Source of the DNA: an uncultured Caldisericota bacterium
GTDB lineage: Bacteria > Caldisericota > Caldisericia > UBA6126
Direction of reading: 5' to 3'
Assembly: GCA_964493625.1 (NCBI GenBank)
Contig: CAZBOU010000001.1
Span: 143,922 to 207,921 of the forward strand
Length of the DNA: 64,000 nt
Below are positions 1-47,559 of the stretch, piece after piece. The position numbers and the translations under genes are program-made. The first letter of the stretch is position 1; every line of letters starts with the position of its first letter. The notes under the pieces are model-generated. The model saw nothing but the letters and a program-made list of their open reading frames with translations, had not been told where the DNA came from and ran no database searches.

Positions 1-3000
1 TTATTACCGAAATTCTCCTACTTTTGCAATCGGTACTGGCGTATCCAATGTAAAAGTGACACCTTCTCCTTCCACTGACGATACTGAAAATGTTCAATAT
101 GTTGTCGAGTTTAAACTGGGGCAAAGTGGTGCTCTGTACAAAAATACAGGGAAAATTTTTGTGGAGATGTTTCTTGGAAACGATCCAATCACATTTGATG
201 GAGTTACCTTGTCAAATGGTTCGGTTTTCTTTGGAACCGGACAATACACCACTATTCCAACCGAAGTAGAGAGCGTTGGCGGAGGGCTTTTTAAGCTTAC
301 AATTTCTCCTCCACAAGATCTCAATGCAGGAGCTACAGTTAAAATAACATTCAAACCTTCTGCAGGGTTGATCAATCCGGATGCAGGTACATACAACGCT
401 GTTGTATATACGAGCTCCGAGATGCTAGAGTCGGAATCCGAATCCTACGAAATTCATGATGCTATTATGGTGAATACCGTGGATGTAGATCCCACAGCTG
501 CTAATGTAGAAGCTGAATACACACTCAACGTAACCATTGATGATTCCTTAACAAAAAATATCGACACCATCTCCGTAGCGTTTCCTCAGGGTCAACGGCT
601 TCCAACAACCATTACACCAGGGGATATTTCGGTCGATGGAACCAATGTCATCCTATCTCCTTCTGTTTCATCCAATGTTCTCACCTTTCATGTTCCAAAT
701 GATATCCCTGCAGGAACTACTTTTGATATTCTGATCAAAAAATCAGCGAAAATTAAGAACCCAACAACCGCTGGCATTTATAGACTGCAAGTGAATACAT
801 CCAAACAAACATCCTATCGATTGTCTCCTCCCTTTTATATCGGAACCTCTGTAACCGGAATTGAAGTTATTCCCTCTCCTGATACAGCCAACAGTACAAA
901 TGTACAATACACGGTAAAATTTAAAATCGGCAACAATGGAGCTTTAACAGCCAATTCAGGCGACTTTATTTCCATCCAGATGCCACTAGGGGAATTGCCA
1001 ACATCGGGAGCTTCTTCAATTACTGTAAACAACGATCGATGTATTGAAAATCCTACCATTACAGATGTTGGAGGAGGATTGTACGAATTTGAAGTCTATC
1101 CCCCCAAAGACCTTCGATCCGGTGCTCAAGTTACAGTTGTATTTACCACCTCTGCAGGACTTAAAAACCCAGCAGAAGGAAATTATCGAATTACGGTCTT
1201 TACGAACAAAGAACCTATTCCTATGCAATCCGATATTTATTTAATCAAGAATGCAGTTGTGATCAATTCTGTCGATGTAAATCCTCCAGCTACAAGTGCT
1301 GAAGCTGAATATACAATTAGCATTGATATTGGTAAAAAATTAACCAAAGATATAGACACAATCGCCATCTCCCTTCCTCGAGAATCCCGAATACCATCTT
1401 CCATCAACAAAGGAAGTGTTTCGATTGAGAACGATGGAATTGTCACCGACCTAACTCTTCCCCCAACCGTGTCAGGGAGTACTATTACACTAAAAGTTCC
1501 CAAAACATATGACCCAACTCTTCCCGGGGCAGATCCTACACTCATTATTGTTGTAAAACAATCAGCAAAAGTACAAAACCCTACAAGTGCAGGCATATAT
1601 ACATTGCAAGTAATGACGTCTTCACAACCTTACTACCGAGTATCTCCCAATTATGCAATTGGTACCTCTGTAACAGGTTTTAAGATTATGCCGAATCCAA
1701 AATCCAAAAATACAGTCGACGTACAATATACATATGAATTTAAGGTAGGCGCTAGTGGAGGTCTTACGAAGAATTCAGACGAAATCCACATTATCCAACA
1801 AGTTGGAACCAGTGGACCTCTCCCTATGTTGCTACCAACATCGTCTGTAACTGTGAATGGAAAATACACTCAAGTTGCTACGGGAATTGTCGACCCCGTC
1901 GACCCCCTCTATCCTCCCGGCGCAGGATGGGTAGAAATCATCATTCAAGTCCCAGAAGATATCCGCAATAGCGGAACGGTTAAAATTGTAATCTTATCCT
2001 CTGCAGGCCTTGTTAACCCAGCAGCTGGTAATTACAAAGGTGTTATATGGACAGATCAGGAACCAATTTCTGTTGAATCTGAGTATTATCAAATTGAAGA
2101 TACGGTACTTTTCTTAGGTCCTGTTGTTGTGACACCTCCCTCGGTGGGACAAGTTGCTGAATACGAAGTAAACCTTCAATTGGACTTGGGTTTGCAAGCA
2201 AATCAAGGAACTATTACGATTGCCTTCCCAAGTGGAACTAGATTAAACCGCACAATCCCCACGACAGGAATTACAATACAAATTGGAGCAGCCCCTGAGC
2301 AAAACCTTAATATTGCCCCGCAAATATCAGGGAACAACGTCATTATAACCGCACCTGTCAACATCCCAGATGGATCCGATATTATCATACGGTTTCAAAA
2401 GAATGCAGGTGTAACCAACCCTACCACCGCAGGACTATATCGATTGCAAGCAATGACATCTTCACAACCTTATTATGCCTTATCTGATTATTATGCAATC
2501 GGTAGCTCTATTACACTTTTTGAAATTACGCCTATGCCTAACAACATTGGTGAAGAGAGAGTTGTATACGTAGTAAAAATGAAAATTGGAGCCAATGGAT
2601 TAACAGCAAATGAAGACCAAATATACCTGAGTTTGCCATTAGACGCTCCTGCTGGGCCTGGTACTTTACAACCTAGCACAATTACAGTAAACGGCGAATT
2701 TACAACCTTATCCACCAATTACCAAATTGATCCTACGTACGGCCCTCCCTATATTCAGTTTGAAATACCTGTTCCTGTGGATGTGAAAGCGAATTCAGAG
2801 CTGAATGTCGTATTCCTCGAATCTTGTGCCTTGCAAAATCCTTCTACAGAGGGCATCAAGTTTGGCTATGCGCATACTTCTCAAGAGGATATTGAGATCA
2901 AATCAAAACTGTACAATATTGTTGATTCGGTTGCATTTCCGGGCATCAATCCACCTTTGGATATGCGATCCGTAATTCCAAAATCCAACGGGATTTCTTT

Positions 3001-5620
3001 GCCAGCTCAATATATGGTTCATTTTGTAACATCTGCTACAAAACCACAATTAACGCAAAACTTAGATCGTATAAGCATTGTTTTCCCTGACGGTACCACC
3101 GTACCATCAAGTATTTCACCTGGATCCATCTATATTTCTACTGCACCAATTTGGGGAGCAGGAGATCCTGATTCTTTAACATGTCCTCCGCCCGTTGGAA
3201 CCATCTTGAATCAATCCGTTACAATTATAGGACAAGAAGTATCTTTCCCAGTTCCTATAACCATTCCTTCTGGATCCAACGTTTATATACTCTTTTGTAA
3301 AGATGCAGGATTAGAGAATCCATCCAAACCTACGATTTACAACCTTTTAGTGAAAACATCTACACAGCCCAATTACGGTATTTCCCGCAATTACATTATT
3401 CGTTCCACCGTATCTTCTGCCGAAGTTGTAGTAGATCCACCCGTTATTAATCAAAATGCAGAATATACAGTCCAGTTTACACTTGGAGAAACTGGTGCCA
3501 TTACTGCAAACAATAGTGATCTGTACGTAGGTTTCAACGGAGATGATTATACAACTCCTGCTGCAAATCTAGCTCCCTCTTCCATTAAAGTGAATGGTGT
3601 ATACTGTACAACATTTTCCACTGTCAATGCAGGACCTGCTCTGCCTGGAAATGTGGACAACGCACCTGGCTGGAATCTATACAGATGGATTCAAATCCAA
3701 TCCCCTGTAAATATTGATGCAGGTTCACAAGTAACCATTGAGTTCTTACAAAGTGCGGGATTTGTAAATCCTGCAGATTCTGGCAACTATACATGTATTG
3801 TTTGGACAAACAAAGAACCAATAGCGATCGAATCGTATCAATATACAATTGGGGATGCCGTTCAGAATCTAGAAGTACCTGCTACGCATCCCAATCCAAA
3901 AACAACAGGATCCTTTGCAGAGTATTTGATTGAATTTGACCTAGGAGTCGATCCATCGTCCCAACTCTATGCAAATACAAGTTCTATCTCTGTTACATTT
4001 CCTGAAGGTACAACGGTACCTTCCTATATCAATCCTGCGAACATCAAAGTTGGTTTTGGAGCCGTGTGCAATCCCACCTTTTCCTCTGTACCTCCCATTA
4101 CTGTGGAGGATAATACAGTTACTTTCCGCGTTCCAATTGCTATACCTGCCGGAGAACACGTTTGTATAAAATTTGAAAAAGGTGCTCAAATAGCGAACCC
4201 GCAAGACCCAGGATCGTACCAACTCAAATTAAACACCTCTTCACAACCTATCGCTGCCATTTCCAATTACTACTCGATTCTATCGACAAGTAGTATTCCA
4301 AGGGTTTCTGCAGAACCACCTGCTATCAATGCAAAGAATACTGCCTATGAAATCCGTTTTAATACAGGCATTAATGGTAATATGCTGCAGGATACAGAAG
4401 AAATTGTGATCGTATTCGACCCATCCTATGTAGGGGACTATACTGTTGGTTTTGACCCCAATCCTTCTGCTTATCCAGAGCTAACAACATCCATTCCGCA
4501 GAACTCGGTGTTTGTAAATGGAGTTGTTTTAAGCTCCATTCCTACGGTTGTCAATGATGCAGGGGAATTGAAGTATATTAAGCTGATCACTCCTGTTGAT
4601 ATAGATGCAGAATCCGAAGTAGTGGTAAAAATATCCAATATTGCTGGAATCAAAAACCCGCCAACTGTGGGACTTTATCGTTTGGCAGTTCTGACTTCGG
4701 TTGAGCCAACCCCTGTTGAGTCTCATGCATTTAGCTTGTTCTCCTCCGTTGGTGCTATTTCTGTCGAGTTGGCCAAGGACGGTTTTGTCGAACCTGCATT
4801 CCCGCCTCCTCCAGATCCTAGAGGGGCCACACCTAACACCAATGCAGAATACATTATTGAGTTCACTACCGGACCTTCCGGTAACCTTATAAAAGATTTG
4901 GGAACGATTACAGTAGCTTTCCCTTACGATACAAAGCTTCCTTCTTCTATTCTTGCCGGTTCTGTACGATGCAAGATCACCAATACCATTCTTGGAGTTA
5001 CGTATGACGGAACCCTTTCAAAAGCTCCGGTCATAAATCAAGAAACCAACGAAGTGGTTATTAGCGTTCCCGACGATGTGGAAGCCACAGACACCATTGA
5101 AATTCGTTTTACGGAGCTTGCTGGTATTCAAAACCCAACGCAATCGGGCACCTATACTCTGGAAGTTTCAACTTCATCAGAGCCATTGCTAGTTCGATCC
5201 GATCCATACTCCATCCTTGGTTTGTCTGCTGCAGAAGTAACTGTTGAGCCTTGCTTGCAGCAACTTACAGGGGCTGAAGTCAGTATTTCCTTTACAACAG
5301 TGAATGCCCTAGCCATAGGGGATGTTATTGATATCGAGTTTCCGTTTGGTACTCGCTTACCCTCTGTAATTGAGGGCGATTTTGTCATTGTAAACAATCA
5401 TCCTGCAAATGTTGGAGCTTTCCCCCAAGTCCAAGTCGACAAACAAATCGTTTCTATTAAAGTTCCAGAAATCATTCAAGCTTTATCCACAGTGCGCATT
5501 GTCTTTACAGAGAAGGCTCGCATTCAAAATCCTTCCACGGGAATGTATTCCCTGAAGATAAAAGCTGGTACACTCGAGCCAGACCACCGATGGGTGGAAT
5601 CAAAAGAGTATTTTATTTGT
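1..5620 (+). repeat. Coding tandem array of 13 ~130-aa modules in alternating A/B subtypes (~820-840 bp super-period)
   Basis: The N-P signature codons of consecutive B-type units lie at nt 758, 1577 and 2417 (spacing 819 and 840 bp). Nt 1581-1670 and 2421-2510 align gap-free with a near-identical 34-nt core. Confidence 0.8.
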
Positions 5621-8600
5621 GGGGATTTTACGCTGGCTACTGCCGAAATGATTCCCGATAGCGCAACAATGGCCAAAGGTCAAAGAAAAGAACTTGAAGT
5701 AGTATCATATGATGAAAACGGCAATACCATACCACCTGCCGGACTGTCGTATTACTGGACAACACAGGGCAATATAGGAAGTTTAACCGATATTACTAAA
5801 AACAAAGCGACCCTTGTTGCTTCTCAAACATCTGGTAGCGGAACCGTTCAGTGTGCCGTAACATTCGGAAACACAACTATACAGGTCAGTTCTTCTATCA
5901 CTGTTTCTTCTACAACGGCTCAACTGGTTGTGAATCCTACAAATAGCTCATTGTCTGTAGGAGATACACAGTCATTTACTGCAGGGGCTTACAAACAAGA
6001 CGGTAGCCCTATTAACCTTACCTATAGCTGGAGATTAGAAGGAGATTCAACAGGTTCCTTGTCTCCTATGACCGGTAAAACAACTACATTCACAGCTTCT
6101 TCCGCTGGAACATCTAAGATTATTGTTTCTGCAACCTATGAAGGAGAAAATCTCGAAGCTACAGCCAATGTCTCTGTTTCAGACAATGGTGGTCCAGGAC
6201 CAGGCCCAGGGGATGGTGCTCCTGTTCAAGCCACTATCACTCCCACAAGAGTGAATGTGAACCAGGGAGATATTTCTTTTAATTTCACCTTCACCTCTGT
6301 AGCAGAAATGTCCAACGGAATCATTGAGATCACAATTCCATCGGGCTTCCCAGAACCTACGATTGCTCCTGGATCGCAAGGCTACATCACGGCACTGGCG
6401 GGAACAGGTGTGAACATTTCGAATCCTCCCAATATCCAAGGTAGAAAAATTATCTTTAATGTCATGAGTATGGCCAATCGAAAGACCTTTACGATGACCT
6501 ATTCAAAAGTATCTGCTCCTTCAACTCCGGGCGAATATATATTCCAGATCCAAGCGAAGCAAAACCAAGACGCCGACCTTTTATCTGTTGATGAACTACC
6601 CGAAGTACTTGTTGTTTCCGTTGCTGATGGTAGTGGCAGAGCCAGTATCAACCCGAATCAAGCCTCCTCTGGGGCTACCGGACAGCGATTTGAAATTTCT
6701 TATACTGCAGATGCAGCAATGAATAGCGGAGCAATACAAATTATTGTTCCTCAAGGTTTTTCTAGACCATCTCTATCCTCTACTGCCGAGGGATATGTTC
6801 GTCTAAAAGAAGACTCTCTTGAATTTGCCAATTCACCAGAGGTACTAGGAAACATTATTACTGTTCCTATCATGACAATGGGTGTCAATGATAAACTAAC
6901 AATCATCTATGAAGACGTACGAATTCCTGCTCAGCCAAATGTATACACCTTTGTGGTAAAAAGCAAAGGAATGGGGGGTAGTTTTGTAGAAATACCCTCT
7001 AGCCCATCGGTTAACGTCAGCAATACTAGAATCTCGGATGCCAAAGTAGAGGTAGACCCAAATCAAACATCGATGTCTGCAGAGTATACCATATCGTTCA
7101 GAACCTCCGGCACTGGCTCTTTACTGAGCGGCAAAGGGACAATTGAATTCATCTACCCTGCCCAAACGATGCTTCCCGATTCTATAAAAAGCAGTAATAT
7201 TACAGTAAATGGCGAAGTCGTTACATTGCCACCAAACGTTGAAGCTGTTCGAAGCAAAGTTACTATCACGGTGCCAAAAGATATTCCTTCCAATAGTTTA
7301 GCAATTGTACAGTTTAGCAAAGAAGCCAATATTGTGAATCCAGCAACACCAAAAGACGATTACAAAATTTCAATTACTACGTCTTCTGATACAATACAAA
7401 CGTCTACGGATCCCTATACAATTGTGGTTTCAGAGCTTCGCGATATTCAAGTCGAAGTTTCTCCTATACAACCTGCAGCTATCGCAGATTACACGATTCG
7501 GATGAAAGTTGGAGGCGCAGGAGCTTTAAGCGTAAACCAAGATTCTATTACTGTCATTTTCCCATCCGACACAGAATTGCCTTCTTCCATTCCTGCCAAT
7601 GCAATCCTCATTAACAGCACTCCTCTAATGACAAGACCTCAGGTTGACCTTGCTCAGCGAAAAATCATCATGGCCCTTCCTGTTCGAATTGAAAACGATA
7701 CAGAGGTAATCATCGAAATAAAAACCGCCGCAAAAATTAAGAATCCTACCAGAGACGGCATGTACAAATTGAAAGTGTTTACATCCAAAGAAACAACACA
7801 AACAGAATCGGAAGCCTATCAAATTGGAACCTCACTATTGGGTGATATTAGCGTTTCTCTCTCTTCGTCATTGGTTGATGAACAAAATGTTACCTATACT
7901 GTTCAGTTTAGAACAGGTGGATATGGACGCATTGAAGTGGGTGAAACCATTACCATATCATTTGATAGTCGCTACAACCTAGGCACCATTCAAGCCCATC
8001 ATGTTACAGTGAACGGTGTTGTATGTTCCATTACCCCAGAAGTGTCTGAAGGGGTTTCTGTTATCATTAAATCCCCCATTGCAATTGATGGTGAAAGCAA
8101 TGTAACAGTCACTATTAGCAATATGCGCAACCCTTCAACATCCGGAGAATACACTGTATCTGTATCAACGCAAGCGGAACCTATGCCCGTTGTTTCCACT
8201 CCTTATACGGTGGGTATGATTCTTACTACTGAAATTACAGTGAACCCATCCTCACCAAATGGACTTTCTGGATGGTATAAAATTGCTCCCAACATTCTAT
8301 TCAATAATGATGTAGCAAGTGCAAAGATTTTCTATTCCTGGGACGAAGAACCCTTCCAGCGGTATACTGGTACAGCCATCACAGCTCCAGAAGGTATCCA
8401 TATATTGAACTGGTACTCTGTTGCAGAAGGTTTTTCCGATGAAACCAAGCAAGATATGCAGTTTAAAGTAGACACAAAAGCTCCTGAAGTTTTCGTAAGT
8501 GAACCCAAAGATGGGGCAGTGTTGAATGAACCACAAGTGAAGGTATCTGGTGAAGTATACGAGAACAATGCATTTACTGTTACGATAAATGATAGACCAG

Positions 8601-9433
8601 CAACTCTTACTGAAAAACGTTTTACTTCCATTGTTTCCTTAAATCCAGGAGACAATTTGATTGATATCATTGCTATTGATGAAGCTGGAAATCGAAGTGT
8701 TACTCCTAGAATACGTGTAAAATATGTACAACCGTCGGATATTAAGTTTAATATTCAATCACCTCAAAGCTTGTCCTCTGTTTATCCCGTTTTAGAAACA
8801 ACCGACGAGGGCTCGCGGCTTGTTGCAACGATACCCATTGAAGGAAAAATTAATCCAGCCACAGCGGATACGGTAAACATTATCATCATGGATGTAATGG
8901 AACAACCTGTATCCCTGCCTATTGATGAAGCTGGAATCTTCAAGGGTGAAGTTAAGATGCCAGTCATTGCTGGGTTAAACGGTATTGTGTTTTCCGTCAA
9001 GGATCGCATAACAGGAAAAGAATATTCCTCTTCTTCCACCGTTATTGCAAAGGTCATGATTGAACTTCAAATTGGCAATTCATTGGCTTTTGTGAACGAA
9101 CAAGAAAACAAGCTAGATGCTCCTCCCTACATTAAAGATGGAAGAACCATGCTACCTATGCGATTTATTGGAGAAGCCATTGGAGCTACAGTAGGATGGA
9201 TACCTGAAGGCAAAACGGTTGTATATGACTTTGATACGATTCATATCGAGCTTCAAATTGGAAGCAAAGAAGCTCTTGTAAAGCGAGGAGAAACATCCGA
9301 AACTATAGAAATGGATGTTGCTCCTGAAATTAAGAGTGGTCGAACTTTTGTTCCATTGCGTTTTGTAACAGAGACCTTAGGAGCTGAAGTTGAGTGGATT
9401 CCAGAAACGAAAACCATTAAGGTTTCCAAATGA
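1..9433 (+). CDS. Giant secreted repeat-module surface protein, 5' end off-window (>3,140 aa)
   Basis: The frame is open from nt 2. Nt 2-55 translate to YYRNSPTFAIGTGVSNVKV, the tail of a preceding module, so the true start is upstream of the window. Hand count: 16 modules with signature [AG]-[GK]-[ILV]-x-N-P-x(2-5)-G-x-Y-x-[ILV]-x-[ILV]-x-T-S. Also two Big_2-like Ig domains (~5630-6180), a GGPGPGPGDG linker (6188-6223), two 'type-C' units, and a C-terminal GWY domain / Ig / 2x copper-amine-oxidase-N-like cassette. Confidence 0.85.
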   Translation, partial: YYRNSPTFAIGTGVSNVKVTPSPSTDDTENVQYVVEFKLGQSGALYKNTGKIFVEMFLGNDPITFDGVTLSNGSVFFGTGQYTTIPTEVESVGGGLFKLTISPPQDLNAGATVKITFKPSAGLINPDAGTYNAVVYTSSEMLESESESYEIHDAIMVNTVDVDPTAANVEAEYTLNVTIDDSLTKNIDTISVAFPQGQRLPTTITPGDISVDGTNVILSPSVSSNVLTFHVPNDIPAGTTFDILIKKSAKIKNPTTAGIYRLQVNTSKQTSYRLSPPFYIGTSVTGIEVIPSPDTANSTNVQYTVKFKIGNNGALTANSGDFISIQMPLGELPTSGASSITVNNDRCIENPTITDVGGGLYEFEVYPPKDLRSGAQVTVVFTTSAGLKNPAEGNYRITVFTNKEPIPMQSDIYLIKNAVVINSVDVNPPATSAEAEYTISIDIGKKLTKDIDTIAISLPRESRIPSSINKGSVSIENDGIVTDLTLPPTVSGSTITLKVPKTYDPTLPGADPTLIIVVKQSAKVQNPTSAGIYTLQVMTSSQPYYRVSPNYAIGTSVTGFKIMPNPKSKNTVDVQYTYEFKVGASGGLTKNSDEIHIIQQVGTSGPLPMLLPTSSVTVNGKYTQVATGIVDPVDPLYPPGAGWVEIIIQVPEDIRNSGTVKIVILSSAGLVNPAAGNYKGVIWTDQEPISVESEYYQIEDTVLFLGPVVVTPPSVGQVAEYEVNLQLDLGLQANQGTITIAFPSGTRLNRTIPTTGITIQIGAAPEQNLNIAPQISGNNVIITAPVNIPDGSDIIIRFQKNAGVTNPTTAGLYRLQAMTSSQPYYALSDYYAIGSSITLFEITPMPNNIGEERVVYVVKMKIGANGLTANEDQIYLSLPLDAPAGPGTLQPSTITVNGEFTTLSTNYQIDPTYGPPYIQFEIPVPVDVKANSELNVVFLESCALQNPSTEGIKFGYAHTSQEDIEIKSKLYNIVDSVAFPGINPPLDMRSVIPKSNGISLPAQYMVHFVTSATKPQLTQNLDRISIVFPDGTTVPSSISPGSIYISTAPIWGAGDPDSLTCPPPVGTILNQSVTIIGQEVSFPVPITIPSGSNVYILFCKDAGLENPSKPTIYNLLVKTSTQPNYGISRNYIIRSTVSSAEVVVDPPVINQNAEYTVQFTLGETGAITANNSDLYVGFNGDDYTTPAANLAPSSIKVNGVYCTTFSTVNAGPALPGNVDNAPGWNLYRWIQIQSPVNIDAGSQVTIEFLQSAGFVNPADSGNYTCIVWTNKEPIAIESYQYTIGDAVQNLEVPATHPNPKTTGSFAEYLIEFDLGVDPSSQLYANTSSISVTFPEGTTVPSYINPANIKVGFGAVCNPTFSSVPPITVEDNTVTFRVPIAIPAGEHVCIKFEKGAQIANPQDPGSYQLKLNTSSQPIAAISNYYSILSTSSIPRVSAEPPAINAKNTAYEIRFNTGINGNMLQDTEEIVIVFDPSYVGDYTVGFDPNPSAYPELTTSIPQNSVFVNGVVLSSIPTVVNDAGELKYIKLITPVDIDAESEVVVKISNIAGIKNPPTVGLYRLAVLTSVEPTPVESHAFSLFSSVGAISVELAKDGFVEPAFPPPPDPRGATPNTNAEYIIEFTTGPSGNLIKDLGTITVAFPYDTKLPSSILAGSVRCKITNTILGVTYDGTLSKAPVINQETNEVVISVPDDVEATDTIEIRFTELAGIQNPTQSGTYTLEVSTSSEPLLVRSDPYSILGLSAAEVTVEPCLQQLTGAEVSISFTTVNALAIGDVIDIEFPFGTRLPSVIEGDFVIVNNHPANVGAFPQVQVDKQIVSIKVPEIIQALSTVRIVFTEKARIQNPSTGMYSLKIKAGTLEPDHRWVESKEYFICGDFTLATAEMIPDSATMAKGQRKELEVVSYDENGNTIPPAGLSYYWTTQGNIGSLTDITKNKATLVASQTSGSGTVQCAVTFGNTTIQVSSSITVSSTTAQLVVNPTNSSLSVGDTQSFTAGAYKQDGSPINLTYSWRLEGDSTGSLSPMTGKTTTFTASSAGTSKIIVSATYEGENLEATANVSVSDNGGPGPGPGDGAPVQATITPTRVNVNQGDISFNFTFTSVAEMSNGIIEITIPSGFPEPTIAPGSQGYITALAGTGVNISNPPNIQGRKIIFNVMSMANRKTFTMTYSKVSAPSTPGEYIFQIQAKQNQDADLLSVDELPEVLVVSVADGSGRASINPNQASSGATGQRFEISYTADAAMNSGAIQIIVPQGFSRPSLSSTAEGYVRLKEDSLEFANSPEVLGNIITVPIMTMGVNDKLTIIYEDVRIPAQPNVYTFVVKSKGMGGSFVEIPSSPSVNVSNTRISDAKVEVDPNQTSMSAEYTISFRTSGTGSLLSGKGTIEFIYPAQTMLPDSIKSSNITVNGEVVTLPPNVEAVRSKVTITVPKDIPSNSLAIVQFSKEANIVNPATPKDDYKISITTSSDTIQTSTDPYTIVVSELRDIQVEVSPIQPAAIADYTIRMKVGGAGALSVNQDSITVIFPSDTELPSSIPANAILINSTPLMTRPQVDLAQRKIIMALPVRIENDTEVIIEIKTAAKIKNPTRDGMYKLKVFTSKETTQTESEAYQIGTSLLGDISVSLSSSLVDEQNVTYTVQFRTGGYGRIEVGETITISFDSRYNLGTIQAHHVTVNGVVCSITPEVSEGVSVIIKSPIAIDGESNVTVTISNMRNPSTSGEYTVSVSTQAEPMPVVSTPYTVGMILTTEITVNPSSPNGLSGWYKIAPNILFNNDVASAKIFYSWDEEPFQRYTGTAITAPEGIHILNWYSVAEGFSDETKQDMQFKVDTKAPEVFVSEPKDGAVLNEPQVKVSGEVYENNAFTVTINDRPATLTEKRFTSIVSLNPGDNLIDIIAIDEAGNRSVTPRIRVKYVQPSDIKFNIQSPQSLSSVYPVLETTDEGSRLVATIPIEGKINPATADTVNIIIMDVMEQPVSLPIDEAGIFKGEVKMPVIAGLNGIVFSVKDRITGKEYSSSSTVIAKVMIELQIGNSLAFVNEQENKLDAPPYIKDGRTMLPMRFIGEAIGATVGWIPEGKTVVYDFDTIHIELQIGSKEALVKRGETSETIEMDVAPEIKSGRTFVPLRFVTETLGAEVEWIPETKTIKVSK

Positions 9434-9476
9434 TGACTTGTTGTAAAGTTTACTCCTACAACGAAGGAGGAAGGAC

Positions 9477-12400
9477 ATGAGCGCTAAAAAGATCATTAGC
9501 TTGTTGTTAGGATTTATGGTAATGTTCTCCATTGTTTCGGTTGGGTATTCAAGAATCACTACATTTGTAAACGAACCCAATCCAAACACAGCAGGAACTC
9601 CTGCTAATCATACGTTAAAGTTTACCAATACAGAAACGATTCCGCAGGGGGGCCGTATTGAGATAGAGTTTCCTTCTGCTTTTAATTTGTCTACTTTATC
9701 CATGGGAGCCCCTTTTGACGAGACGGATTTTGTGGTTACCTTGCAAAAGCCAGCCGCTTCTCCAGCCCCTCCCGTTGTAAAGCCTGGATCTGTTATGCGA
9801 GATGGAAAAAAATTGTCATTTGAAATTGGCGATTCTGACGTTGCACCAGGTTTTCAGAGAATAGAAATTACCAACACCAAAATTCTGAATCCTCCTACGC
9901 CAGGAAACTATACCATTCAGTTACGAACCTACGATACGGCTGCGAATAATCAAAGACAAATTGAGTATGCAACGTCTTCGCAGTTTGAAATTGTTACAGA
10001 AATGAGCCGTGCCTCTGTGTATCCAGACCCAAACAGGGCTGGAGAAAGGGCCAAGTATACCATACGGTTTAAACTAGGAACCGGAACCAGCAGGAGTCTG
10101 TTTGCCGGAGACCGTATTCGCATTCAATGGGATGCCAATCTTGTACCCGGTGCTGACCCTACTAACGCTACTTTTATTCAAGCTCCCATTCCGAAAGAAT
10201 CTGTTACTGTAAACGGTATTCACCCTCAAATAGATCCTCAATTTATATCAGAAGGTATACCAGAGCCTAATCCTACTGGAAGCTTTTGCGAAATGGACAT
10301 TATCCTTCCGAATAATATAAGCACTACCTCTTCCTATGCTCCTGAAGTCTCGATTGTGTTTGATCAGTCTGCAGGCATCATCAACCCCGATGGAGAATTG
10401 GACAATCGTACTATTACAGTAGGTATTTATAGAAGTGATGGGGTTACAGTAGTTGAACCCGCTCTTGAATCCAATGCCTATTCTCTCAAAACATCTCTTT
10501 TTGTTCCTGCCGTTTTTGTTCAACCAGACAAAACGAATGCAATTGCAGAATATCATGTGGCTTTCAAAGTAGGAGAACAAGGTAAGCTTATTGCAAATTC
10601 TGGAAGAGTGAGCGTAGAATTTCCTTCAGAAACAGGAGTACCTTCTACAATATCTGCTTTCAGTATCAAAACTGCTTCCCCTCCTCCAGCTGCAGAACCA
10701 CCACTGCCGTATGCTGGTGCAACCACAAACGCTCCTTACGATCCTCAAATTGTAGGGAACAAAGTCTCGTTTGTCGTACCAGAGACTGTTATGCCAGGAC
10801 AATATGTTTGTTTCATCTTTAAAACCGATGCTGGGATACGCAACCCCGACAGAGAAGGAATTTATCACTTAAAACTATCAACATCAGCAGAGCCTTCCGT
10901 TGTAACATCTCAGAACTACAGAATCCAAGGCTATAGTACAACAGGCGTCACGGTTGTCCCAAACAAATCAGAAGAAGAGGCAGAATGGAACATCCGTTTT
11001 AAACTTGGATCTTCTGCTGGATTGTATACGTTCAATAACGATACGATTGCTATTACCTTCCCCCAAGGGACAGGTCTACCTGCCATTGATATTCCAGCAG
11101 GCGATATTGCAGTCAATGGCGTTGCAACCACCGCACCTGCTGTAGTGAACCCTGCTACTAGACAAGTGACTATTTTAGTCCCCCAGTCCATCGAACAAGG
11201 AGCAAATGTAGTAGTTCGTATCAAGAAACAAGCAAAAATTAACGTCCCGACCATTGACGTCACTCCCAAATATTTTACGTTGAAAATAGAGGTTTCTTCA
11301 GAAACAGATCCGTATATCTCAGACCCATTTGAAGTATATACCTCTATAGATAACCTAACGGTACTTTTAAACGACCCAGGTGTGGGCGTGGTATCTCAAC
11401 AAGAAATAAGCTTTACATTAGGGGATGTTGATGAAGGATTGAAAGCAAACGAGAGTATTTCATTGGAGTATCCTGCAGGAACCAATGTACCCTCGTTCAT
11501 TAATGCAGGCAACATTCGAATCCTGAACGTAGCCTCTGCTGTCGAAATGAACCCCTCTTCAGTCCAAGTTAGCGGTCAAAGAGTTAAAATGACCCTACCG
11601 TCCACGTTCCCAACAATCTTAGAAAAAAATGCTGTAAAAGTTACGTTTTTATCAAGTTGTGGAATTTCGAACCCTACGGAACCTGGATCTTACACTCTTA
11701 CTGCTTATACTTCGAAAGAGACCACACCGGTTCAATCTGAATTCTATACGATTGGAACTGTTTCAGGTGCTGTACAAATATCGGTTGAACCAAAGGCCTC
11801 TGGTTATTGTATCCCACAACCTGTTGTACCAAAAAATGACAAGGGTGCTGTGTATACAATTCAATTTTTGACAGGCTCTAGTGGAGGGTTGTCCACAGGT
11901 CAATTTGTAACGGTTGTATTCCCCCCATCCTATGCAGCAATATTTAACAACAACTATCCGATTCCAACCAATACCATCCCTCCAGGCAATATTATGGTGA
12001 ATGATCAACCCGTAACCATGGGATCTACCATAACAGATGCCCCAGCATCGTATCCTGCGGGTTCCAAAATGGTGCAAATACCCCTGCCTGTTTCGATTGG
12101 TGCTACCGAAAAAGTGTCTATTCGATTTTTGGAATCAGCGGATATCGACAACCCCGTAGTTACCATTACTCCGCAGCCCTTTACTTTACATGTCTTTACT
12201 GCTACAGAATCCTCCGCAGTATCGGGTACTTTTTATTTGTATTCTCAAATAGAAGGTATTGGCGGAGCCCCTATCAATAGTAATTTGCCCATTAATGTGA
12301 CTTTATCAAACTATACAGCCGGACGAGATTGCGGCATTGAGTTTGGTTTTAAAACCGGTCCCATTGGAGCTCTCAAGGCAAACTCTGATACAGTTTCCGT

Positions 12401-15400
12401 AATGCTTCCACAAGGAACAAGGCTTCCTTCTTACATAGCTTCTGGCACCATATTGGTGGATCAAGATGGCGTGATTGACGGCAATGAAGTATCTGTTCTG
12501 AATCCAAAAATTGATCACAACATTGTTACTTTTACCGTTCCAATCGATGTTGGCAATCTTGACAACCTGTATGTGTACTTCACCGAGCAAGTAGGCATGT
12601 TAAACCCCAGTGCACCCGGAAATTATCAGATATTTGCCAAAACTTCTTCTGAAGAAAACTATATAGGGTCTTTGGAATACACCATCAATCCTGTTTCTTA
12701 CACCATTCCTACAGTCAGTGTAAAACCTGCATTTATTGGTGTGGATGGTTTGTATACCATTCGTTTTCAAACCGGTTCGTATGGAAACTTGAATATGGGA
12801 GACACGATCAATCTGCGATTTCCCTTAGACACTACCATCCCAGCTTCCATGAATTCTTCCTACGTTCGAGTAAACAATGTCCGGTGTTCTATCAATCCAT
12901 TGACGAATCCAGCGGATCGAACCATACAAATTTACAGTCCCGTTGCTATCAATGGAAACTCTACCATTGAAATCACCATCCACGAAGATGCAAAAGTGAC
13001 GAACCCAACAATTGCTGACAAATACAATATGGAAATATGGACTTTGCGCGAAGGTTCTAAGAATAATCCTCTTATCTCCAATGAATATGAAATTTATGCC
13101 AACACCAGCCCTTTGCACATCACAACTGAAATTTCTCCTTGCACCCCCTATACCAATGCGGAATATGGTATTGAGTTTTATACCCCCGAAGCCATTGTTG
13201 CCAATACAACAGAAGTGAAGATAACCTTTCCCAATGGCACCTTCATTCCCTCTACCCTAGATTCCTATACCATTATGTTTGGTTCCACATACTGCAGGAC
13301 AACGCCAACTGTTGCGCAATATACGGTAACCCTTGTTTCTCCTATTGCAATCAGCAAAAATGATCCTGTGAAAATTACCTTTACCAAAGATGCTGATATT
13401 CAGAATACAAGCGAAGGAACGCACAAGATGTATTTTGAAGTTGTAGGACCCGGTCTGGTCCGAAGAGATCGTGATGTATACATTTGTCCTGATTTGGATT
13501 TACACCGCATCGAAATAACTCCAAGCGACGTACGAATATCAGAAGGCAAATCGCAAACCTTTACTGCGTTTGCCTATGATGCCAACGGAAATAGAATTTC
13601 TCGGGGCGTTGTATATCACTGGAGTTTGTCTGGTGGTATTGGTTGGTTAAGTAGCTTTAAAGATGAAAGAACCGAATTTTATGCCAGTGATATTGGCAAA
13701 GGAAGCGTGACGGTTACAGTTTCCTATGGATCCCAATCTTCGATCACAGTGTCTTCCATGGTAACCGTTGTGGGGCCTTTGGATCGCATTGTGCTATCTC
13801 CCGATTCAATTACAACATCCCGCGGAAAAAAGACCCGATTCATGGTAACCGCCTATGATGGACAAGGCGAAATGATAGAGGACGTTTCCTATACCTGGAC
13901 GGTGGAACCGTCATTGGGAAAAATTGACAAGCTAACGAATCCCAATGAAATTGATTTCTTAGCGGAATCCGAAGGACGATGTACCCTACAGGTAACTGTT
14001 AAACAGCAGGATGTCTATCGAGAAGCCACAGCGGATATTGATATTCGCAACGGCGTCAATGATTTACGTTTTGAACCTTCTTCGTATCCTAGTCCTTTTG
14101 AACCATCCGAAATCATTGGACCCATTGTGGTAAAAATGGTGGATCAAAGCGGGAATCCAATTGTACAGAATACGGCCTACACCATTACATTAAAATCTTC
14201 TTCCACAACCACACGGTTTTCATTGGATGGAGCGACATGGACAGAGCAACATACTATTGACGTCCAAGTAGCACCAAATTTCTCTGAATCCATGCCGTTT
14301 TTTGTTTCTGATTTGGAACAAGGCAATATTTCGGTTACGGCTACATCAAAAGATTACAATGCTGCCATTATGACGCTTAGCATACGAGGAATCAAAAAAC
14401 AATTGATGTTTAGAACGCCTCCTAGACTTTTACGCATCAACAAGCCATCCGATCCTATTATGGTTCAATTGGTAGATATTTTCGGGAACTCTTTCAAAAT
14501 GAACAGAGACATCTTGATAAATGTCAAAGCAGATTCTCATACGGCAACATTTTCAACGTTTTCTTCCGCAGAAGAATGGCTACCCCAAAGCAGCATATTG
14601 TTAAAAGCAGAAGAACAGCATGTAGAGTTTTATTGTATGGATACCCGAGAAGGATCATTTAACATCACGGTATCCCATCCATTGTTTGGTAGCATCACCC
14701 AGATGGAAATGGTTGCTTCTCCCGGTTCCGTTAGCATGCCCGAAGTAACAGTAAACCCATCCACTGTGGACGCAGTTGCAACTTACGGTATAGCTTTCAC
14801 TTTAGGTCTTGACGGAAGCTTGGGAACAATATCAGACACCATTACCATCCAATTTCCAAAAGAAACCACTCTTCCCAACTATCTATCCGCCCAAGATGTT
14901 CTAGTGAACGATAATCCGATGTTTACAACGCCATACATTGATGCTGCAAAGAAATTTATCCGCCTTGTACCCCCTGTAGAATTGAACGGTGGGCAAAAGA
15001 TAAATATTGTAATTAAAGGCATTACCAACCCTTCCACAGAAAATGATTATCATATTACGGTATTTACCTCGAAACAGACTACACCATCTTTGTCGGCAGG
15101 ATACCATATTGGAGTTTCCTCCGTTACCGACGTGATTGTATCGCCAAATCCTGTCATTACAGGAGAAATTGCCACCTATGAAATTGGATTTCGTACAGGT
15201 GTTTCAGGGGATCTCATGCAAGGTGATACCATTGTTGTATTGTTTGACTACAATTTCACATTGCCCAAGAAAATTGGTAGAAATACCGTGATGGTCAACG
15301 GAGTGATACCTTCTTCTGACCCCATAGTATCTGGAAAATCGGTCATCATAAAAGTCGATCGAAAAATTGGATCCAATTCCAAAGTAGAACTTGTTCTTAC

Positions 15401-17117
15401 AAAAGAAGCAGGTATTGCAAATCCTGAGTTTCCTGGAATGTATCAGTGCAGGCTTTATACTTCGAAGGAAGAATCAAGTGTGGAATCGGAACCATTCCAA
15501 ATTGTTGACCGTTCCACCTTACAACGAGTTAAGGTGCAGCTGAAACCAGCTAGCATTGCTTCTGAAACGCAAATTACCATTACAGGAAATCTTGGCCCTT
15601 ATGGTGCTTTAACACGTGGAGAAAACATCTATGTTTCCTTGCATCCATTTGTGTTGCCAGAGACCTTACACGGATCATATGCAGCCGTGAATGGTATTCG
15701 GTTGAGTGGAACTCTTGAAGTCAAAAAGAAAGTGGTGACCCTACCTCTTTCCATGAATCTTGCCAATGGGGAAGACTTGACAATTATTTTCTACAGCCAG
15801 GCTGGTATCATTAATCCCACCACCCCTGGCTATGACTACAGAATTAGTATATGGAGTGACAAAGAACCTGCTCAGGTTATGTCCGAACCCTTTACTGTAG
15901 AGCCTTCCTTGGAAATTGATTGCTTGTTAACACCCGATTCACCCGATGGATTGTCTGGCTGGTATATAACAGCACCTACTGCAATTTTCACTTCCAATGT
16001 GATTGGTACTTTCTACTATCGTATTGATAACAACCTGGAAAAAGAGTATACGAATCCAGTGGAACTGAATATGCCCGGGAAACACACATTGTACTATCGT
16101 TTGGTAACAAAAATGGGAACTGAATCCGATGAATACAAAGTTGAATTTTCCTATGACGGAGAGGGACCAGAAATCCTTACCAATATTGAATCCGAAGTCC
16201 TTTATACACGAGATCAGACATATCCTTTGTCCATACGTATCAACGATATTTCACCAGTGAAGGTAACTGTGAACCAAAAACCTATCACGCTCATAGAAAA
16301 TACATATTCAGCGCTTTTGAATTTACAAAATGGTGAGAATACTATTCAAATAAAGGCAGAAGATGAAGCTGGAAACATTACGTATGCAACCTACCGAATC
16401 ATTGTGAAAGTGAACCCACCCATTCTTGTGCTTTCTTCTCCACAGTTGTACCAAACAGTAGAAGACGTGTACTTCTCTACCACACCCGATGGAAATGCAT
16501 TGTATGCCAACATACGAATTCGAGGAACCACAGAAATTGGAATCCAGAAAGTGCAAGTGGTTTCTTCCACAAAACCAGACGAAACGATAACTTTGGATGT
16601 GGATCATATGGGAACATTTGATCGAGTTGTGGGAATGTCTGTACTGGCTGGCGATAACATCTTAAAAGTTGAAGTAGAAGATGCCGTAGGAAATAAAAAC
16701 AGTGTCACTATTTCCTTTATTGTAAGGTGCACATTGCGACTTCGCATTGGTGTTGAAACCGGGTATTTAAATGCAACGTCCCTTACCTTGGATGCAGCTC
16801 CGTATTTGAAGTACAACATGCACACCATGATCCCCTTCCGCTTAGTAGCTGAATCCTTTGGTGCTAAGGTAGGATGGGATCACACAGAACGAAAAGTTTC
16901 TTACGATTTCCGAGGGGTCCATATTGATCTATGGATTGATCAGTTAAAAGCTGTTATTACTCATCCAGATGGACGCAAAGAAACGAAAAATATGCCAGCA
17001 GAACCCGAATTAAAAAATGGAAGAACTATGATTCCATTGCGGTTTGTTGCTGAATCGATGGGTATGAAAGTTGGCTGGGATGCCAAATTATGGGAAGCTT
17101 CATTGACCTATCCGTAA
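9477..17117 (+). CDS. Giant secreted repeat-module surface protein (2,546 aa)
   Basis: RBS AAGGAGGAAGG precedes the ATG at 9477, 43 nt after the upstream stop. Signal peptide MSAKKIISLLLGFMVMFSIVSVGYS. Hand count of 12 modules with the same signature, Big_2-like domains (~13500-14040), and Big_1/invasin-like units (~14040-14700). C-terminal GWY domain (DSPDGLSGWY), Ig unit (AEDEAGN) and 2x CuAO-N-like repeats (GRTMIPLRFVAESMGMKVGW). Confidence 0.9.
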   Translation: MSAKKIISLLLGFMVMFSIVSVGYSRITTFVNEPNPNTAGTPANHTLKFTNTETIPQGGRIEIEFPSAFNLSTLSMGAPFDETDFVVTLQKPAASPAPPVVKPGSVMRDGKKLSFEIGDSDVAPGFQRIEITNTKILNPPTPGNYTIQLRTYDTAANNQRQIEYATSSQFEIVTEMSRASVYPDPNRAGERAKYTIRFKLGTGTSRSLFAGDRIRIQWDANLVPGADPTNATFIQAPIPKESVTVNGIHPQIDPQFISEGIPEPNPTGSFCEMDIILPNNISTTSSYAPEVSIVFDQSAGIINPDGELDNRTITVGIYRSDGVTVVEPALESNAYSLKTSLFVPAVFVQPDKTNAIAEYHVAFKVGEQGKLIANSGRVSVEFPSETGVPSTISAFSIKTASPPPAAEPPLPYAGATTNAPYDPQIVGNKVSFVVPETVMPGQYVCFIFKTDAGIRNPDREGIYHLKLSTSAEPSVVTSQNYRIQGYSTTGVTVVPNKSEEEAEWNIRFKLGSSAGLYTFNNDTIAITFPQGTGLPAIDIPAGDIAVNGVATTAPAVVNPATRQVTILVPQSIEQGANVVVRIKKQAKINVPTIDVTPKYFTLKIEVSSETDPYISDPFEVYTSIDNLTVLLNDPGVGVVSQQEISFTLGDVDEGLKANESISLEYPAGTNVPSFINAGNIRILNVASAVEMNPSSVQVSGQRVKMTLPSTFPTILEKNAVKVTFLSSCGISNPTEPGSYTLTAYTSKETTPVQSEFYTIGTVSGAVQISVEPKASGYCIPQPVVPKNDKGAVYTIQFLTGSSGGLSTGQFVTVVFPPSYAAIFNNNYPIPTNTIPPGNIMVNDQPVTMGSTITDAPASYPAGSKMVQIPLPVSIGATEKVSIRFLESADIDNPVVTITPQPFTLHVFTATESSAVSGTFYLYSQIEGIGGAPINSNLPINVTLSNYTAGRDCGIEFGFKTGPIGALKANSDTVSVMLPQGTRLPSYIASGTILVDQDGVIDGNEVSVLNPKIDHNIVTFTVPIDVGNLDNLYVYFTEQVGMLNPSAPGNYQIFAKTSSEENYIGSLEYTINPVSYTIPTVSVKPAFIGVDGLYTIRFQTGSYGNLNMGDTINLRFPLDTTIPASMNSSYVRVNNVRCSINPLTNPADRTIQIYSPVAINGNSTIEITIHEDAKVTNPTIADKYNMEIWTLREGSKNNPLISNEYEIYANTSPLHITTEISPCTPYTNAEYGIEFYTPEAIVANTTEVKITFPNGTFIPSTLDSYTIMFGSTYCRTTPTVAQYTVTLVSPIAISKNDPVKITFTKDADIQNTSEGTHKMYFEVVGPGLVRRDRDVYICPDLDLHRIEITPSDVRISEGKSQTFTAFAYDANGNRISRGVVYHWSLSGGIGWLSSFKDERTEFYASDIGKGSVTVTVSYGSQSSITVSSMVTVVGPLDRIVLSPDSITTSRGKKTRFMVTAYDGQGEMIEDVSYTWTVEPSLGKIDKLTNPNEIDFLAESEGRCTLQVTVKQQDVYREATADIDIRNGVNDLRFEPSSYPSPFEPSEIIGPIVVKMVDQSGNPIVQNTAYTITLKSSSTTTRFSLDGATWTEQHTIDVQVAPNFSESMPFFVSDLEQGNISVTATSKDYNAAIMTLSIRGIKKQLMFRTPPRLLRINKPSDPIMVQLVDIFGNSFKMNRDILINVKADSHTATFSTFSSAEEWLPQSSILLKAEEQHVEFYCMDTREGSFNITVSHPLFGSITQMEMVASPGSVSMPEVTVNPSTVDAVATYGIAFTLGLDGSLGTISDTITIQFPKETTLPNYLSAQDVLVNDNPMFTTPYIDAAKKFIRLVPPVELNGGQKINIVIKGITNPSTENDYHITVFTSKQTTPSLSAGYHIGVSSVTDVIVSPNPVITGEIATYEIGFRTGVSGDLMQGDTIVVLFDYNFTLPKKIGRNTVMVNGVIPSSDPIVSGKSVIIKVDRKIGSNSKVELVLTKEAGIANPEFPGMYQCRLYTSKEESSVESEPFQIVDRSTLQRVKVQLKPASIASETQITITGNLGPYGALTRGENIYVSLHPFVLPETLHGSYAAVNGIRLSGTLEVKKKVVTLPLSMNLANGEDLTIIFYSQAGIINPTTPGYDYRISIWSDKEPAQVMSEPFTVEPSLEIDCLLTPDSPDGLSGWYITAPTAIFTSNVIGTFYYRIDNNLEKEYTNPVELNMPGKHTLYYRLVTKMGTESDEYKVEFSYDGEGPEILTNIESEVLYTRDQTYPLSIRINDISPVKVTVNQKPITLIENTYSALLNLQNGENTIQIKAEDEAGNITYATYRIIVKVNPPILVLSSPQLYQTVEDVYFSTTPDGNALYANIRIRGTTEIGIQKVQVVSSTKPDETITLDVDHMGTFDRVVGMSVLAGDNILKVEVEDAVGNKNSVTISFIVRCTLRLRIGVETGYLNATSLTLDAAPYLKYNMHTMIPFRLVAESFGAKVGWDHTERKVSYDFRGVHIDLWIDQLKAVITHPDGRKETKNMPAEPELKNGRTMIPLRFVAESMGMKVGWDAKLWEASLTYP

Positions 17118-17150
17118 AGGATTTCCTACTGGTAGAACAAAAAGAAAAAA

Positions 17151-17181
17151 AAGACCGCTTATGCAAGCGGTCTTTTTTTTT
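17151..17181 (+). terminator. Rho-independent terminator after the giant-gene pair
   Basis: Perfect hairpin AAGACCGCTT-atgc-AAGCGGTCTT followed by a run of 9 T. Confidence 0.85.
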
Positions 17182-28473: not shown

Positions 28474-28547
28474 TAGCGGCACAGGGATTCGAACCCCGGA
28501 CAACACGGGTATGAGCCGTGTGCTCTGACCAACTGAGCTATACCGCC
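28474..28547 (-). tRNA. tRNA with CAU anticodon (elongator Met or Ile2; not initiator-like)
   Basis: Hand-folded cloverleaf: GGCGGTA-TA-GCTC-AGTTGGTCA-GAGC-A-CACGG-CTCATAC-CCGTG-TTGTC-CGGGG-TTCGAAT-CCCTG-TGCCGCT-A. 74 nt, no encoded CCA. No three G-C pairs in the anticodon stem, so it is unlikely to be the initiator. Confidence 0.85.
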
Positions 28548-37655: not shown

Positions 37656-37733
37656 CGGAGCGTGGCGCAGTTTGGCTAGCGCACCAGCATGGGGTGCTGG
37701 GGGTCGGAAGTTCGAATCTTCTCGCTCCGACCA
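37656..37733 (+). tRNA. tRNA-Pro (GGG), CCA encoded
   Basis: Hand fold: CGGAGCG-TG-GCGC-AGTTTGGCTA-GCGC-A-CCAGC-ATGGGGT-GCTGG-GGGTC-GGAAG-TTCGAAT-CTTCT-CGCTCCG-A-CCA. Confidence 0.9.
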
Positions 37734-47478: not shown

Positions 47479-47559
47479 TTCAATGAATGCATAGTAGCGT
47501 TCCGGGTTCTTGATGAACGACACTATTGCATTTTATGACTTTCCCTTTACATTTGTAAC

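Follow-up and report, generated by a model that had tools for sequence, protein, structure and literature searches.

The stretch analysed here (the window) comprises 64,000 nucleotides (nt) from an uncultured Caldisericota bacterium of the class Caldisericia (GenBank assembly GCA_964493625.1, contig CAZBOU010000001.1, positions 143,922 to 207,921, forward strand). It carries three open reading frames (ORF1, ORF2 and ORF3), about 21.9 kb in all, whose giant, predicted secreted products share a module of ~130 amino acids (aa) and a C-terminal cassette. An earlier note on this DNA had described two co-directional genes 43 nt apart (stop at 9433, a ribosome-binding site, ATG at 9477) with products of more than 3,140 and 2,546 aa, and a third paralog at 49081-53901 that brought the total to ~22 kb, all of which is borne out by the frames and the spacer. 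On the + strand, ORF1 reads without interruption from base 2 as far as the TGA at 9431-9433 (3,143 visible codons), the GTG at position 56 being merely the first in-frame start codon of the visible part. The 5' end of the gene is lost at the window edge, and the visible part represents the 3' 87% of a 3,612-aa gene, the full-length product of which is found on the parent contig (ENA ERZ27252306 k141_175403, 214,680 bp). ORF2 extends from the ATG at 9477 to 17117 (2,546 aa) and ORF3 from 49081 to 53901 (1,606 aa).

At a 90%-identical locus of a metagenome-assembled genome (MAG), L005, the ORF1 and ORF2 orthologs are 3,612 and 2,546 aa, lengths identical to those of the window genes; this locus was the reference for the ratio of non-synonymous to synonymous substitution rates (dN/dS). 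Module units were counted with a profile hidden Markov model (HMM) built from eight hand-cut seed units and iterated three times on the three window proteins. The features of the giant genes, including their immunoglobulin (Ig)-like domains, are as follows.

2-9433 (+): ORF1, predicted giant secreted module protein; open frame, dN/dS 0.046 against L005.
44-5617 (+): ORF1 units 1-13 of the ~130-aa module; HMM matches, units 1-12 alternating B-A.
5618-6223 (+): two generic Ig-like domains interrupting the ORF1 array; sub-threshold Big_2, PKD (E 1.4e-4) and Invasin_D3 (E 6e-3).
6224-6973 (+): ORF1 units 14-15, a divergent BslA-like subtype; HMM 58-60 bits, PF17735 25 bits against a cut-off of 38.7.
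7034-8212 (+): ORF1 units 16-18; HMM matches, unit 18 being the sole unit over the DUF2808 cut-off (28.2 against 25.3 bits).
8213-9430 (+): ORF1 C-terminal cassette, consisting of an OmpL47-type small barrel, Glucodextran_B (8483-8698), Ig-like domains and Cu_amine_oxidN1 (9092-9421).
9434-9476 (+): ORF1-ORF2 spacer, 43 nt, with a strong ribosome-binding site, GAAGGAGGAAGG.
9477-17117 (+): ORF2, with signal peptide, 12 units, four Ig-like domains and the cassette; dN/dS 0.041 and 0 gap columns against L005.
9558-13445 (+): ORF2 units 1-9; HMM matches.
13446-14732 (+): ORF2 Ig-like block; sub-threshold Big_2-like and Big_1/invasin-like domains (Big_1 27 bits against a cut-off of 34.9).
14733-15899 (+): ORF2 units 10-12; HMM matches.
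15900-17114 (+): ORF2 C-terminal cassette, with Glucodextran_B (16218-16406), a Big_13-like domain and Cu_amine_oxidN1 (16767-17093).
17145-17180 (no strand assigned): terminator-like hairpin, 16 bp, with a GC core and A/T runs.
49081-53901 (+): ORF3, with signal peptide, one split module, four Big_1/Big_2 domains and the shared cassette.
49180-49353 (+): N-half of the ORF3 module; profile positions 1-60, 51 bits.
49354-51774 (+): insert within the ORF3 module, ~807 aa; no Pfam family.
51775-52077 (+): C-half of the ORF3 module; profile positions 44-129, 59 bits.
53197-53898 (+): ORF3 C-terminal cassette with Glucodextran_B and Cu_amine_oxidN1; Pfam matches.

No intergenic terminator was found between ORF1 and ORF2, so the two genes are read as a putative single operon and transcript. 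The hairpin downstream of ORF2, with an A run and a T run on either side, looks like a bidirectional intrinsic terminator that would close this transcript. The N-termini of ORF2 and ORF3 carry lysine-rich, hydrophobic leaders, which by eye are the classical signal peptides reported before, and the N-terminus of the L005 ORF1 ortholog, MKKGIAFIVAFVLALSQFGFYTAVNA, is a Sec-type leader. The predicted masses are 336 kDa for the visible part of ORF1 (~390 kDa for the full protein), 277 kDa for ORF2 and 175 kDa for ORF3. All three are acidic (pI 4.6-5.0), enriched in Thr, Ser, Val and Ile, and about neutral in hydropathy (grand average of hydropathy, GRAVY, -0.04 to -0.11).

The module HMM recovered 18 units in the visible part of ORF1, 12 in ORF2 and one split unit in ORF3 (aa 34-91 and 899-999), with per-unit domain E-values of 8e-18 to 9e-41, far past chance; the full-length ORF1 carries 21 modules. 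The hand counts made previously are thus retained for ORF2 and ORF3 and raised from 16 to 18 for ORF1; the two extra units, at 6224-6973, belong to the divergent subtype. Pairwise identity among the 30 aligned units averages 26% (range 9-47%). Their consensus agrees with the module motifs that had been written out by hand, and its sole near-invariant feature is an N-P dipeptide present in at least 90% of the units. No residue set for isopeptide or ester cross-links (Lys/Asn/Asp or Thr/Gln/His) was conserved in this consensus when inspected by eye.

The ORF1 array has a higher-order period. Units two places apart share 36% identity (lag 2) and immediate neighbours 28% (lag 1). Subtype profiles read the visible part as BABABABABABAAA.AAB and the complete N-terminus of an ortholog as ABABABABABABAB. 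The alternation of the two subtypes, A and B, is strict through the first 12-14 units, making a super-repeat of ~270 aa, and is kept in ORF1 orthologs (P0181-P0183) at 48-85% identity. The ORF2 units show no comparable regular alternation. We found no DNA tandem repeats in the giant genes; the sole echo at this level is a weak 125-nt family, 66-74% identical, at a spacing of ~820-840 nt (two units).

The module has effectively no place in curated family libraries. Against Pfam, DUF2808 (PF10989) matched 5 of the 30 units at E≤0.01, and the single unit over its cut-off aligned to profile positions 87-129 of 146, a span of ~43 positions. The consensus unit scored 23.4 bits, and no unit exceeded the gathering score over most of the model. 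A distant relationship to DUF2808 is nevertheless likely from the profile scores, because the summed score over the whole ORF1 protein reaches 66.7 bits. BslA (PF17735) matched two of the 30 units weakly, units 14 and 15 only, and its best score of 25.3 bits lies below the gathering score of 38.7. An NCBIfam scan of the giants returned nothing for the module. A Protein Data Bank (PDB) sequence search with the consensus unit gave chance-level matches only, and the same search with the unit profile gave a sole weak match, the collagen-binding adhesin Cnm (8jl8, E 2e-4). In the literature, no functional account was found for DUF2808, Cu_amine_oxidN1 or 'stalk domain-containing protein' as names.

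Structure prediction was more informative about the fold. With the 30 units as the alignment, AlphaFold modelled a single unit as an eight-strand, Ig-like beta sandwich (predicted local distance difference test, pLDDT, 97.5; predicted template-modelling score, pTM, 0.90), and a three-unit A-B-A model was likewise all-beta and Ig-like (pLDDT 91.7, pTM 0.68). In Foldseek searches of the PDB, the best template-modelling (TM) scores of the single unit, 0.56-0.60, were to integrin alpha leg domains and BslA (4bhu), followed by the Ig-like domains of PrgB, the C-domains of antigen I/II (AgI/II), Cnm/Cna, SdrG, ClfB, pilins and the CLIPPER domain of a fibrillar adhesin. The three-unit model matched PrgB, integrin legs, a mastigoneme protein and antigen I/II loosely, with a whole-chain TM score of ~0.25. 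Neither an S-layer (surface-layer) structure nor a close fold relative was among the PDB matches. As modelled, the module is therefore an ordinary Ig-like sandwich in the neighbourhood of adhesins, BslA and DUF2808, whose sequence family is effectively uncurated. The earlier note had been unable to place the unit in a named family, and family scans, one- and three-unit models and Foldseek searches on the excised unit equally gave no full-length match to a characterised family. Its proposal of a novel system is overstated both for the fold, which is ordinary and closest to adhesin and pilin domains, BslA and integrin legs, and for the distribution, the module being found in several phyla.

Every giant ends in Cu_amine_oxidN1 (PF07833), matched over nearly the full model at 112.5 bits in ORF1, 92.0 in ORF2 and 78.7 in ORF3 (cut-off 24.2), and Glucodextran_B is above its cut-off in all three proteins. 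The shared cassette comprises an OmpL47-type small barrel (below cut-off), Glucodextran_B, further Ig-like domains and Cu_amine_oxidN1, and that of ORF1 is 32% identical to that of ORF2 over 395 aa. Cu_amine_oxidN1 is found on wall hydrolases and has been counted among predicted wall-binding modules (PMC4137172; bioRxiv 10.64898/2026.09.23.753664). The three proteins end in ...KTIKVSK, ...EASLTYP and ...ITITYYP, with no LPXTG motif, sortase signal or hydrophobic tail at their C-termini, and a C-terminal Por sorting domain of the type IX secretion system (T9SS) is absent from the window proteins. Big_2 is significant in ORF3 alone; the Ig domains between the arrays of ORF1 and ORF2 remain below threshold (PKD, Invasin_D3, Big_1). 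The Big_2 and Big_1/invasin-like domains announced from the letters are thus upheld for Big_2 in ORF3 and left below threshold in ORF1 and ORF2, while the copper-amine-oxidase-like ending is present in all three. As had been surmised from the lack of a catalytic motif, no enzyme family matched the giants in Pfam or NCBIfam scans.

ORF3 departs from this plan through the ~807-aa insert (aa ~92-898) that sits inside its only module. Seven loops in the insert, of D-x-[DN]-x-[DN] type (D-x-[DN]-x-[DN]-G), look like sites for calcium binding. The insert also repeats a short hairpin motif, '...DY..D..tG.i.f....l..gD.V.adY', and has an Fn3-like stretch, NAVHLNWSPVPNASKYKVYRT.

Comparison with L005 showed strong constraint on the giant genes. 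For ORF1, dS was 1.37 with one gap column in 3,143 aa, and for ORF2, dS was 1.50 over 2,546 aa; in windows of 400 codons, dN/dS remained uniform along both genes at 0.025-0.065. The values for neighbouring genes were 0.025 for nusA (dS 1.86, 0 gap columns), 0.050 for infB (dS 1.35, 4 gap columns), 0.071 for ftsH (dS 1.62, 23 gap columns), 0.077 for nrnA (dS 2.12, 18 gap columns) and 0.092 for truB (dS 1.51, 6 gap columns). ORF1 and ORF2 are constrained like the core translation factors nusA and infB. Collinearity extends to more distant relatives, with ORF1 50.6% identical to P0012 over 3,178 columns (3,612 and 3,580 aa) and ORF2 44.7% identical to P0023 over 2,564 columns (2,546 and 2,518 aa). 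Nine contigs, obtained with different assemblers from several samples, encode a protein identical to ORF2 (P0018).

The gene order AAA_14/DUF4143 ATPase, ORF1, ORF2 is kept in L005 and in the related loci L007, L010 and L011. The ATPase, which lies outside the window, stands directly upstream of the ORF1 ortholog (L005 611-1801, L007 576-1766, L010 8752-9912, L011 8748-9917), and this adjacency holds in every related locus, down to 48% identity. In two MAGs the giants are broken into several frames: L007 1839-20365 (2,104 + 1,010 + 397 aa etc.) and L011 10001-20769 (2,292 + 498 + 719 aa). These breaks are probably frameshift errors of the respective assemblies, because dN/dS is ~0.04 elsewhere, and automated annotation will under-report giant genes split in this way. 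Upstream of the conserved locus, L011 1-8391 also holds a Cu_amine_oxidN1-tailed protein of more than 1,153 aa, a family-2 glycosyltransferase and a 1,211-aa subtilase, which from their gene content could be a set for processing or glycosylating surface proteins.

The module is not peculiar to the source genome, as judged from profile matches to predicted proteins. Scored exhaustively against 1.84 billion cluster representatives, the unit profile matched 2,584 proteins at E≤1e-3, 1,286 at ≤1e-10 and 459 at ≤1e-30, which makes a family of ~2,600 clusters at 50% identity from Caldisericota, Bacillota, KSB1 and other lineages. Nearly all cluster members are metagenome proteins without a name. Word-indexed homolog searches gave one match with the unit alignment, 11 with three units and 15 with 13 units, mostly unnamed. 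Among the best 150 matches there were two main architectures. The T9SS-tailed class has ~1,600 aa and 10 units, with larger versions of 2,800-3,100 aa, and one such protein is named as from candidate division KSB1. The class tailed by the stalk domain has 4-25 units followed by Cu_amine_oxidN1. Named organisms with module proteins are Brevibacillus marinus, Tepidibacillus sp., Caldisericum exile and Caldisericum sp.

Closer to the source genome, a scan of species-representative genomes with ORF2 found Caldisericia/Caldisericota MAGs at 81-94% identity and one match labelled Calditrichota. The latter (L008, DAIMET010000015.1) holds an 85%-identical ORF2 C-terminus and is probably a mis-binned or mislabelled Caldisericia contig. 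Two further Cu_amine_oxidN1-tailed proteins, P0013 (4,405 aa, 25 units) and P0028 (2,740 aa, 11 units), are both listed with a longest NCBI contig of 581,167 bp and so probably lie on one contig, and paired giants may therefore recur in another lineage. The cultured species Caldisericum exile has a homolog of ordinary size, the 'stalk domain-containing protein' WP_424597401.1 (P0101), which has 1,059 aa (112 kDa) and combines five units with a signal peptide and the shared cassette. Aligned with the last three units and cassette of ORF1, it shows 32% identity over 817 aa; aligned with ORF2, it shows 29% over 826 aa. From these alignments, the window giants look like N-terminally expanded versions of a normal-sized Caldisericota wall protein.

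The neighbours of the giants are housekeeping genes, namely trx, rimP, nusA, infB, rbfA, nrnA, truB, ribF, ftsH, hpt and tilS, together with genes of the ruvABC region including ruvAC, pdxST, der, gpsA, thrS, infC and dnaE. The setting among core translation and replication genes reported before is thus accurate as a description; the placement carries no demonstrated meaning. FtsH (24452-26920, - strand) has 822 aa, of which the family model covers the part up to about 612-648, leaving a C-terminal extension of ~200 aa without assignment; its ortholog in L005 has 799 aa, and the 23 gap columns fall between these two copies. Directly upstream of ORF3, 45691-48858 encodes a PAS histidine kinase and a sigma-54-type (NtrC-family) response regulator. 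Control of ORF3 by sigma-54 was considered and rejected, as the 222-nt AT-rich spacer at 48859-49080 contains no -24/-12 element and the pattern count over the whole window is at chance. At gathering thresholds, Rfam matched three tRNA genes in the window and nothing else:

28474-28547 (-): tRNA gene.
37656-37730 (+): tRNA gene.
37754-37827 (+): tRNA gene.

We propose that ORF1 and ORF2 form one operon for two very long, secreted, non-enzymatic rods, and our leading reading, held tentatively and at a little short of an even chance, is that these build a constitutive structural surface coat, whether S-layer, sheath-like or densely fibrillar. Each protein would be exported by the Sec route and then fold as a string of independent Ig-like modules (21 in ORF1, 12 in ORF2) with a few generic Ig domains, the array not being preceded by a distinct tip domain. 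Through putative wall binding, the C-terminal cassette, ending in Cu_amine_oxidN1, would tether the protein to the peptidoglycan without a covalent bond, in a cell that has no outer membrane. From there the rod would extend for some 100 nm or more, assuming about 4-5 nm per Ig-like domain. ORF1 and ORF2 would thereby be constitutive blocks of the outermost Caldisericia coat and not optional adhesins, and ORF3 an accessory member of the same anchoring family. The envelope of the phylum gives this proposal its context. In Caldisericum exile, BamA and predicted outer-membrane proteins are lacking, although electron microscopy (EM) shows an 'outer membrane-like envelope' (PMC4104836); Caldiserica are without core genes for lipopolysaccharide (LPS) (PMC5007114). 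The phylum is treated as monoderm after loss of the outer membrane, with SLH/CsaB kept in some members (bioRxiv 10.1101/2021.05.31.446380; PMC12204202).

The giants have the traits of S-layer proteins in being predicted to be secreted, acidic, free of enzyme domains and equipped with a predicted wall-attachment domain. ORF3 and the C. exile homolog fall within the usual S-layer subunit size of ~40-200 kDa. Several points weigh on the other side: ORF1 and ORF2 exceed that size; the C. exile homolog is basic (pI 8.6) and the window proteins are acidic; as a proxy for expression, the effective codon number and the GC content at third codon positions (GC3) do not set the giants apart from their neighbours; and wall binding by Cu_amine_oxidN1 is a prediction from the literature. 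Caldiserica are reported to keep SLH/CsaB (bioRxiv 10.1101/2021.05.31.446380), which could anchor another, true S-layer, and the case for a coat is drawn here from gene sequences and predicted models. The surface lattice, sheath or adhesin suggested by the earlier note is accordingly sustained as far as secreted, non-enzymatic, modular proteins with a shared cassette are concerned, and neither lattice nor sheath is demonstrated by the present results.

Strings of Ig-like domains are, moreover, a hallmark of fibrillar adhesins, and the nearest structures to the module are adhesin and pilin domains. The giants could accordingly act as fibrillar adhesins or as spacers. Long stalks anchored in the wall would then carry binding surfaces out from the cell and fasten it to particles, to syntrophic partners or to its neighbours in a filament or biofilm, and no continuous layer would be formed. 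We regard this as a real possibility, if a less probable one than a coat. It accounts for the tandem Ig-like stalk of 12-21 modules with a C-terminal anchor, for the Foldseek neighbours including CLIPPER and for the match of the unit profile to Cnm, and it suits the anaerobic reactor and sediment communities from which the host organisms come as well as sizes beyond those of normal S-layer subunits; the ORF3 insert could be a binding head. However, ORF2 and the full-length ORF1 orthologs have no distinct tip domain, their modules beginning at aa ~28-40, right after the signal peptide, and no further family matched, although a module might bind a ligand itself; no LPXTG/sortase signal is present at the C-termini. 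The repeats are old and dissimilar, with a copy number that is constant at 90% identity and a length that is nearly so at 45-51%, and dN/dS is as low as in nusA and infB over the whole length, whereas adhesins usually vary. Purifying selection at housekeeping level is more in keeping with a structural layer than with an adhesin of the usual, variable kind. We therefore favour a coat over a facultative adhesin because this constraint holds at every position of ORF1 and ORF2, because the number of units is fixed, because a tip domain is missing and because the host phylum has an unexplained outer layer.

Two further functions were weighed for the module itself. With their many tandem, non-identical beta-sandwich modules and their putative wall anchor, the giants recall a scaffoldin, and the units might be cohesin-like docking sites that organise enzymes or other proteins on the wall, as in a cellulosome. 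A cohesin-like structure (2jh2, TM 0.49) is among the weak Foldseek matches and the calcium-type loops of ORF3 faintly recall dockerin sites, but none of the units matches Pfam Cohesin, canonical cohesins are not among the top structural matches, no dockerin-bearing gene lies within the window and the loops are not in the paired 22-residue arrangement of dockerin repeats. This makes a scaffold very improbable. A water-repellent film or matrix, in which BslA-like modules would coat a biofilm or filament, is if anything slightly less probable again. It draws on the structural match to BslA and the weak matches of two units to its Pfam model; these stay well under the cut-off, BslA is a single free domain and not a wall-anchored 12-21-mer, and the giants are about neutral in hydropathy. 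Finally, misjoined or inflated arrays, or decaying pseudogenes, might be suspected from the orthologs that are split in L007 and L011. Such artefacts are excluded for practical purposes because the DNA holds no tandem repeats beyond the single weak 125-nt family, no two units are more than 47% identical as proteins and independent assemblies contain the same genes, with ORF2 identical on its nine contigs from separate samples and assemblers; the lengths at 90% identity are unchanged and dN/dS is ~0.04.

Giant secreted multi-Ig surface proteins, the fold and the C-terminal domain are known already. What is new is the uncurated module family, the alternating super-repeat of two subtypes, the extreme conservation of length and sequence, and a testable link to the Caldisericota envelope through the homolog in a cultured species. 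That envelope is unexplained, with an outer layer in EM set against the lack of BamA and LPS genes, and the giants are concrete candidate proteins that are strongly conserved and present in the one cultured species. It is conceivable, although we think it rather unlikely, that the module proteins (the giants and the five-unit C. exile homolog) are the material of the 'outer membrane-like' layer. If so, a lineage that lost its outer membrane would have replaced it with a wall-anchored sheath of rods fixed in length, the period of the lattice would follow from the strict A/B alternation, and T9SS-tailed module proteins would build analogous coats in KSB1-type diderms. Whatever its role, a repeat protein of 3,612 aa that is constrained at housekeeping level, keeps its number of units and alternates two module types in a super-repeat is unusual among surface repeat proteins and calls for a structural explanation. 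The family is missing from curated libraries, and with a profile of its own, thousands of giant surface proteins now labelled 'hypothetical' would gain an annotation.

Compared with known systems, the module shares with DUF2808 a C-terminal hairpin motif (...NP...G.Y...V), and DUF2808 is the only curated family that was recurrently matched; its name has already been applied by JGI to some relatives of the module. DUF2808 proteins differ in being single-domain secreted cyanobacterial proteins of no known function. BslA of Bacillus subtilis, a surface-layer hydrophobin of biofilms whose hydrophobic cap gives interfacial activity, is an extracellular Ig-like sandwich of equal size and the best structural match among small proteins, but is a free 181-aa protein, without arrays or a wall-anchor cassette. 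The fibrillar adhesins of Gram-positive bacteria (PrgB, antigen I/II, Cna/Cnm and SasG-type proteins) have an LPXTG motif for sortase, an adhesive head and often near-identical repeats of variable copy number. The giants resemble them in their signal peptide, tandem beta-sandwich stalk and C-terminal anchor, and differ in the Cu_amine_oxidN1 tail, the lack of a head, the old, diverged repeats, the fixed count and the housekeeping-level selection. TfsA and TfsB of Tannerella forsythia, two large Ig-rich proteins from adjacent genes, reportedly co-assemble into one S-layer. By this description they share a T9SS C-terminal tail with the ~1,600-aa, 10-unit module class, and differ in their size of ~1,200-1,400 aa and in coming from a diderm cell.

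A parallel for the tail is Swol_0133 of Syntrophomonas wolfei, the most abundant protein of the membrane fraction, an acidic, predicted S-layer protein in which nothing but a Cu_amine_oxidN1-type domain at the C-terminus is recognised (PMC3582634). It is much smaller, at 78 kDa, and the comparison with the giants draws on its published description. WP_424597401.1 of C. exile is a true homolog, with a signal peptide, units of the module and the shared cassette, and differs from the giants in being much shorter, uncharacterised and basic.

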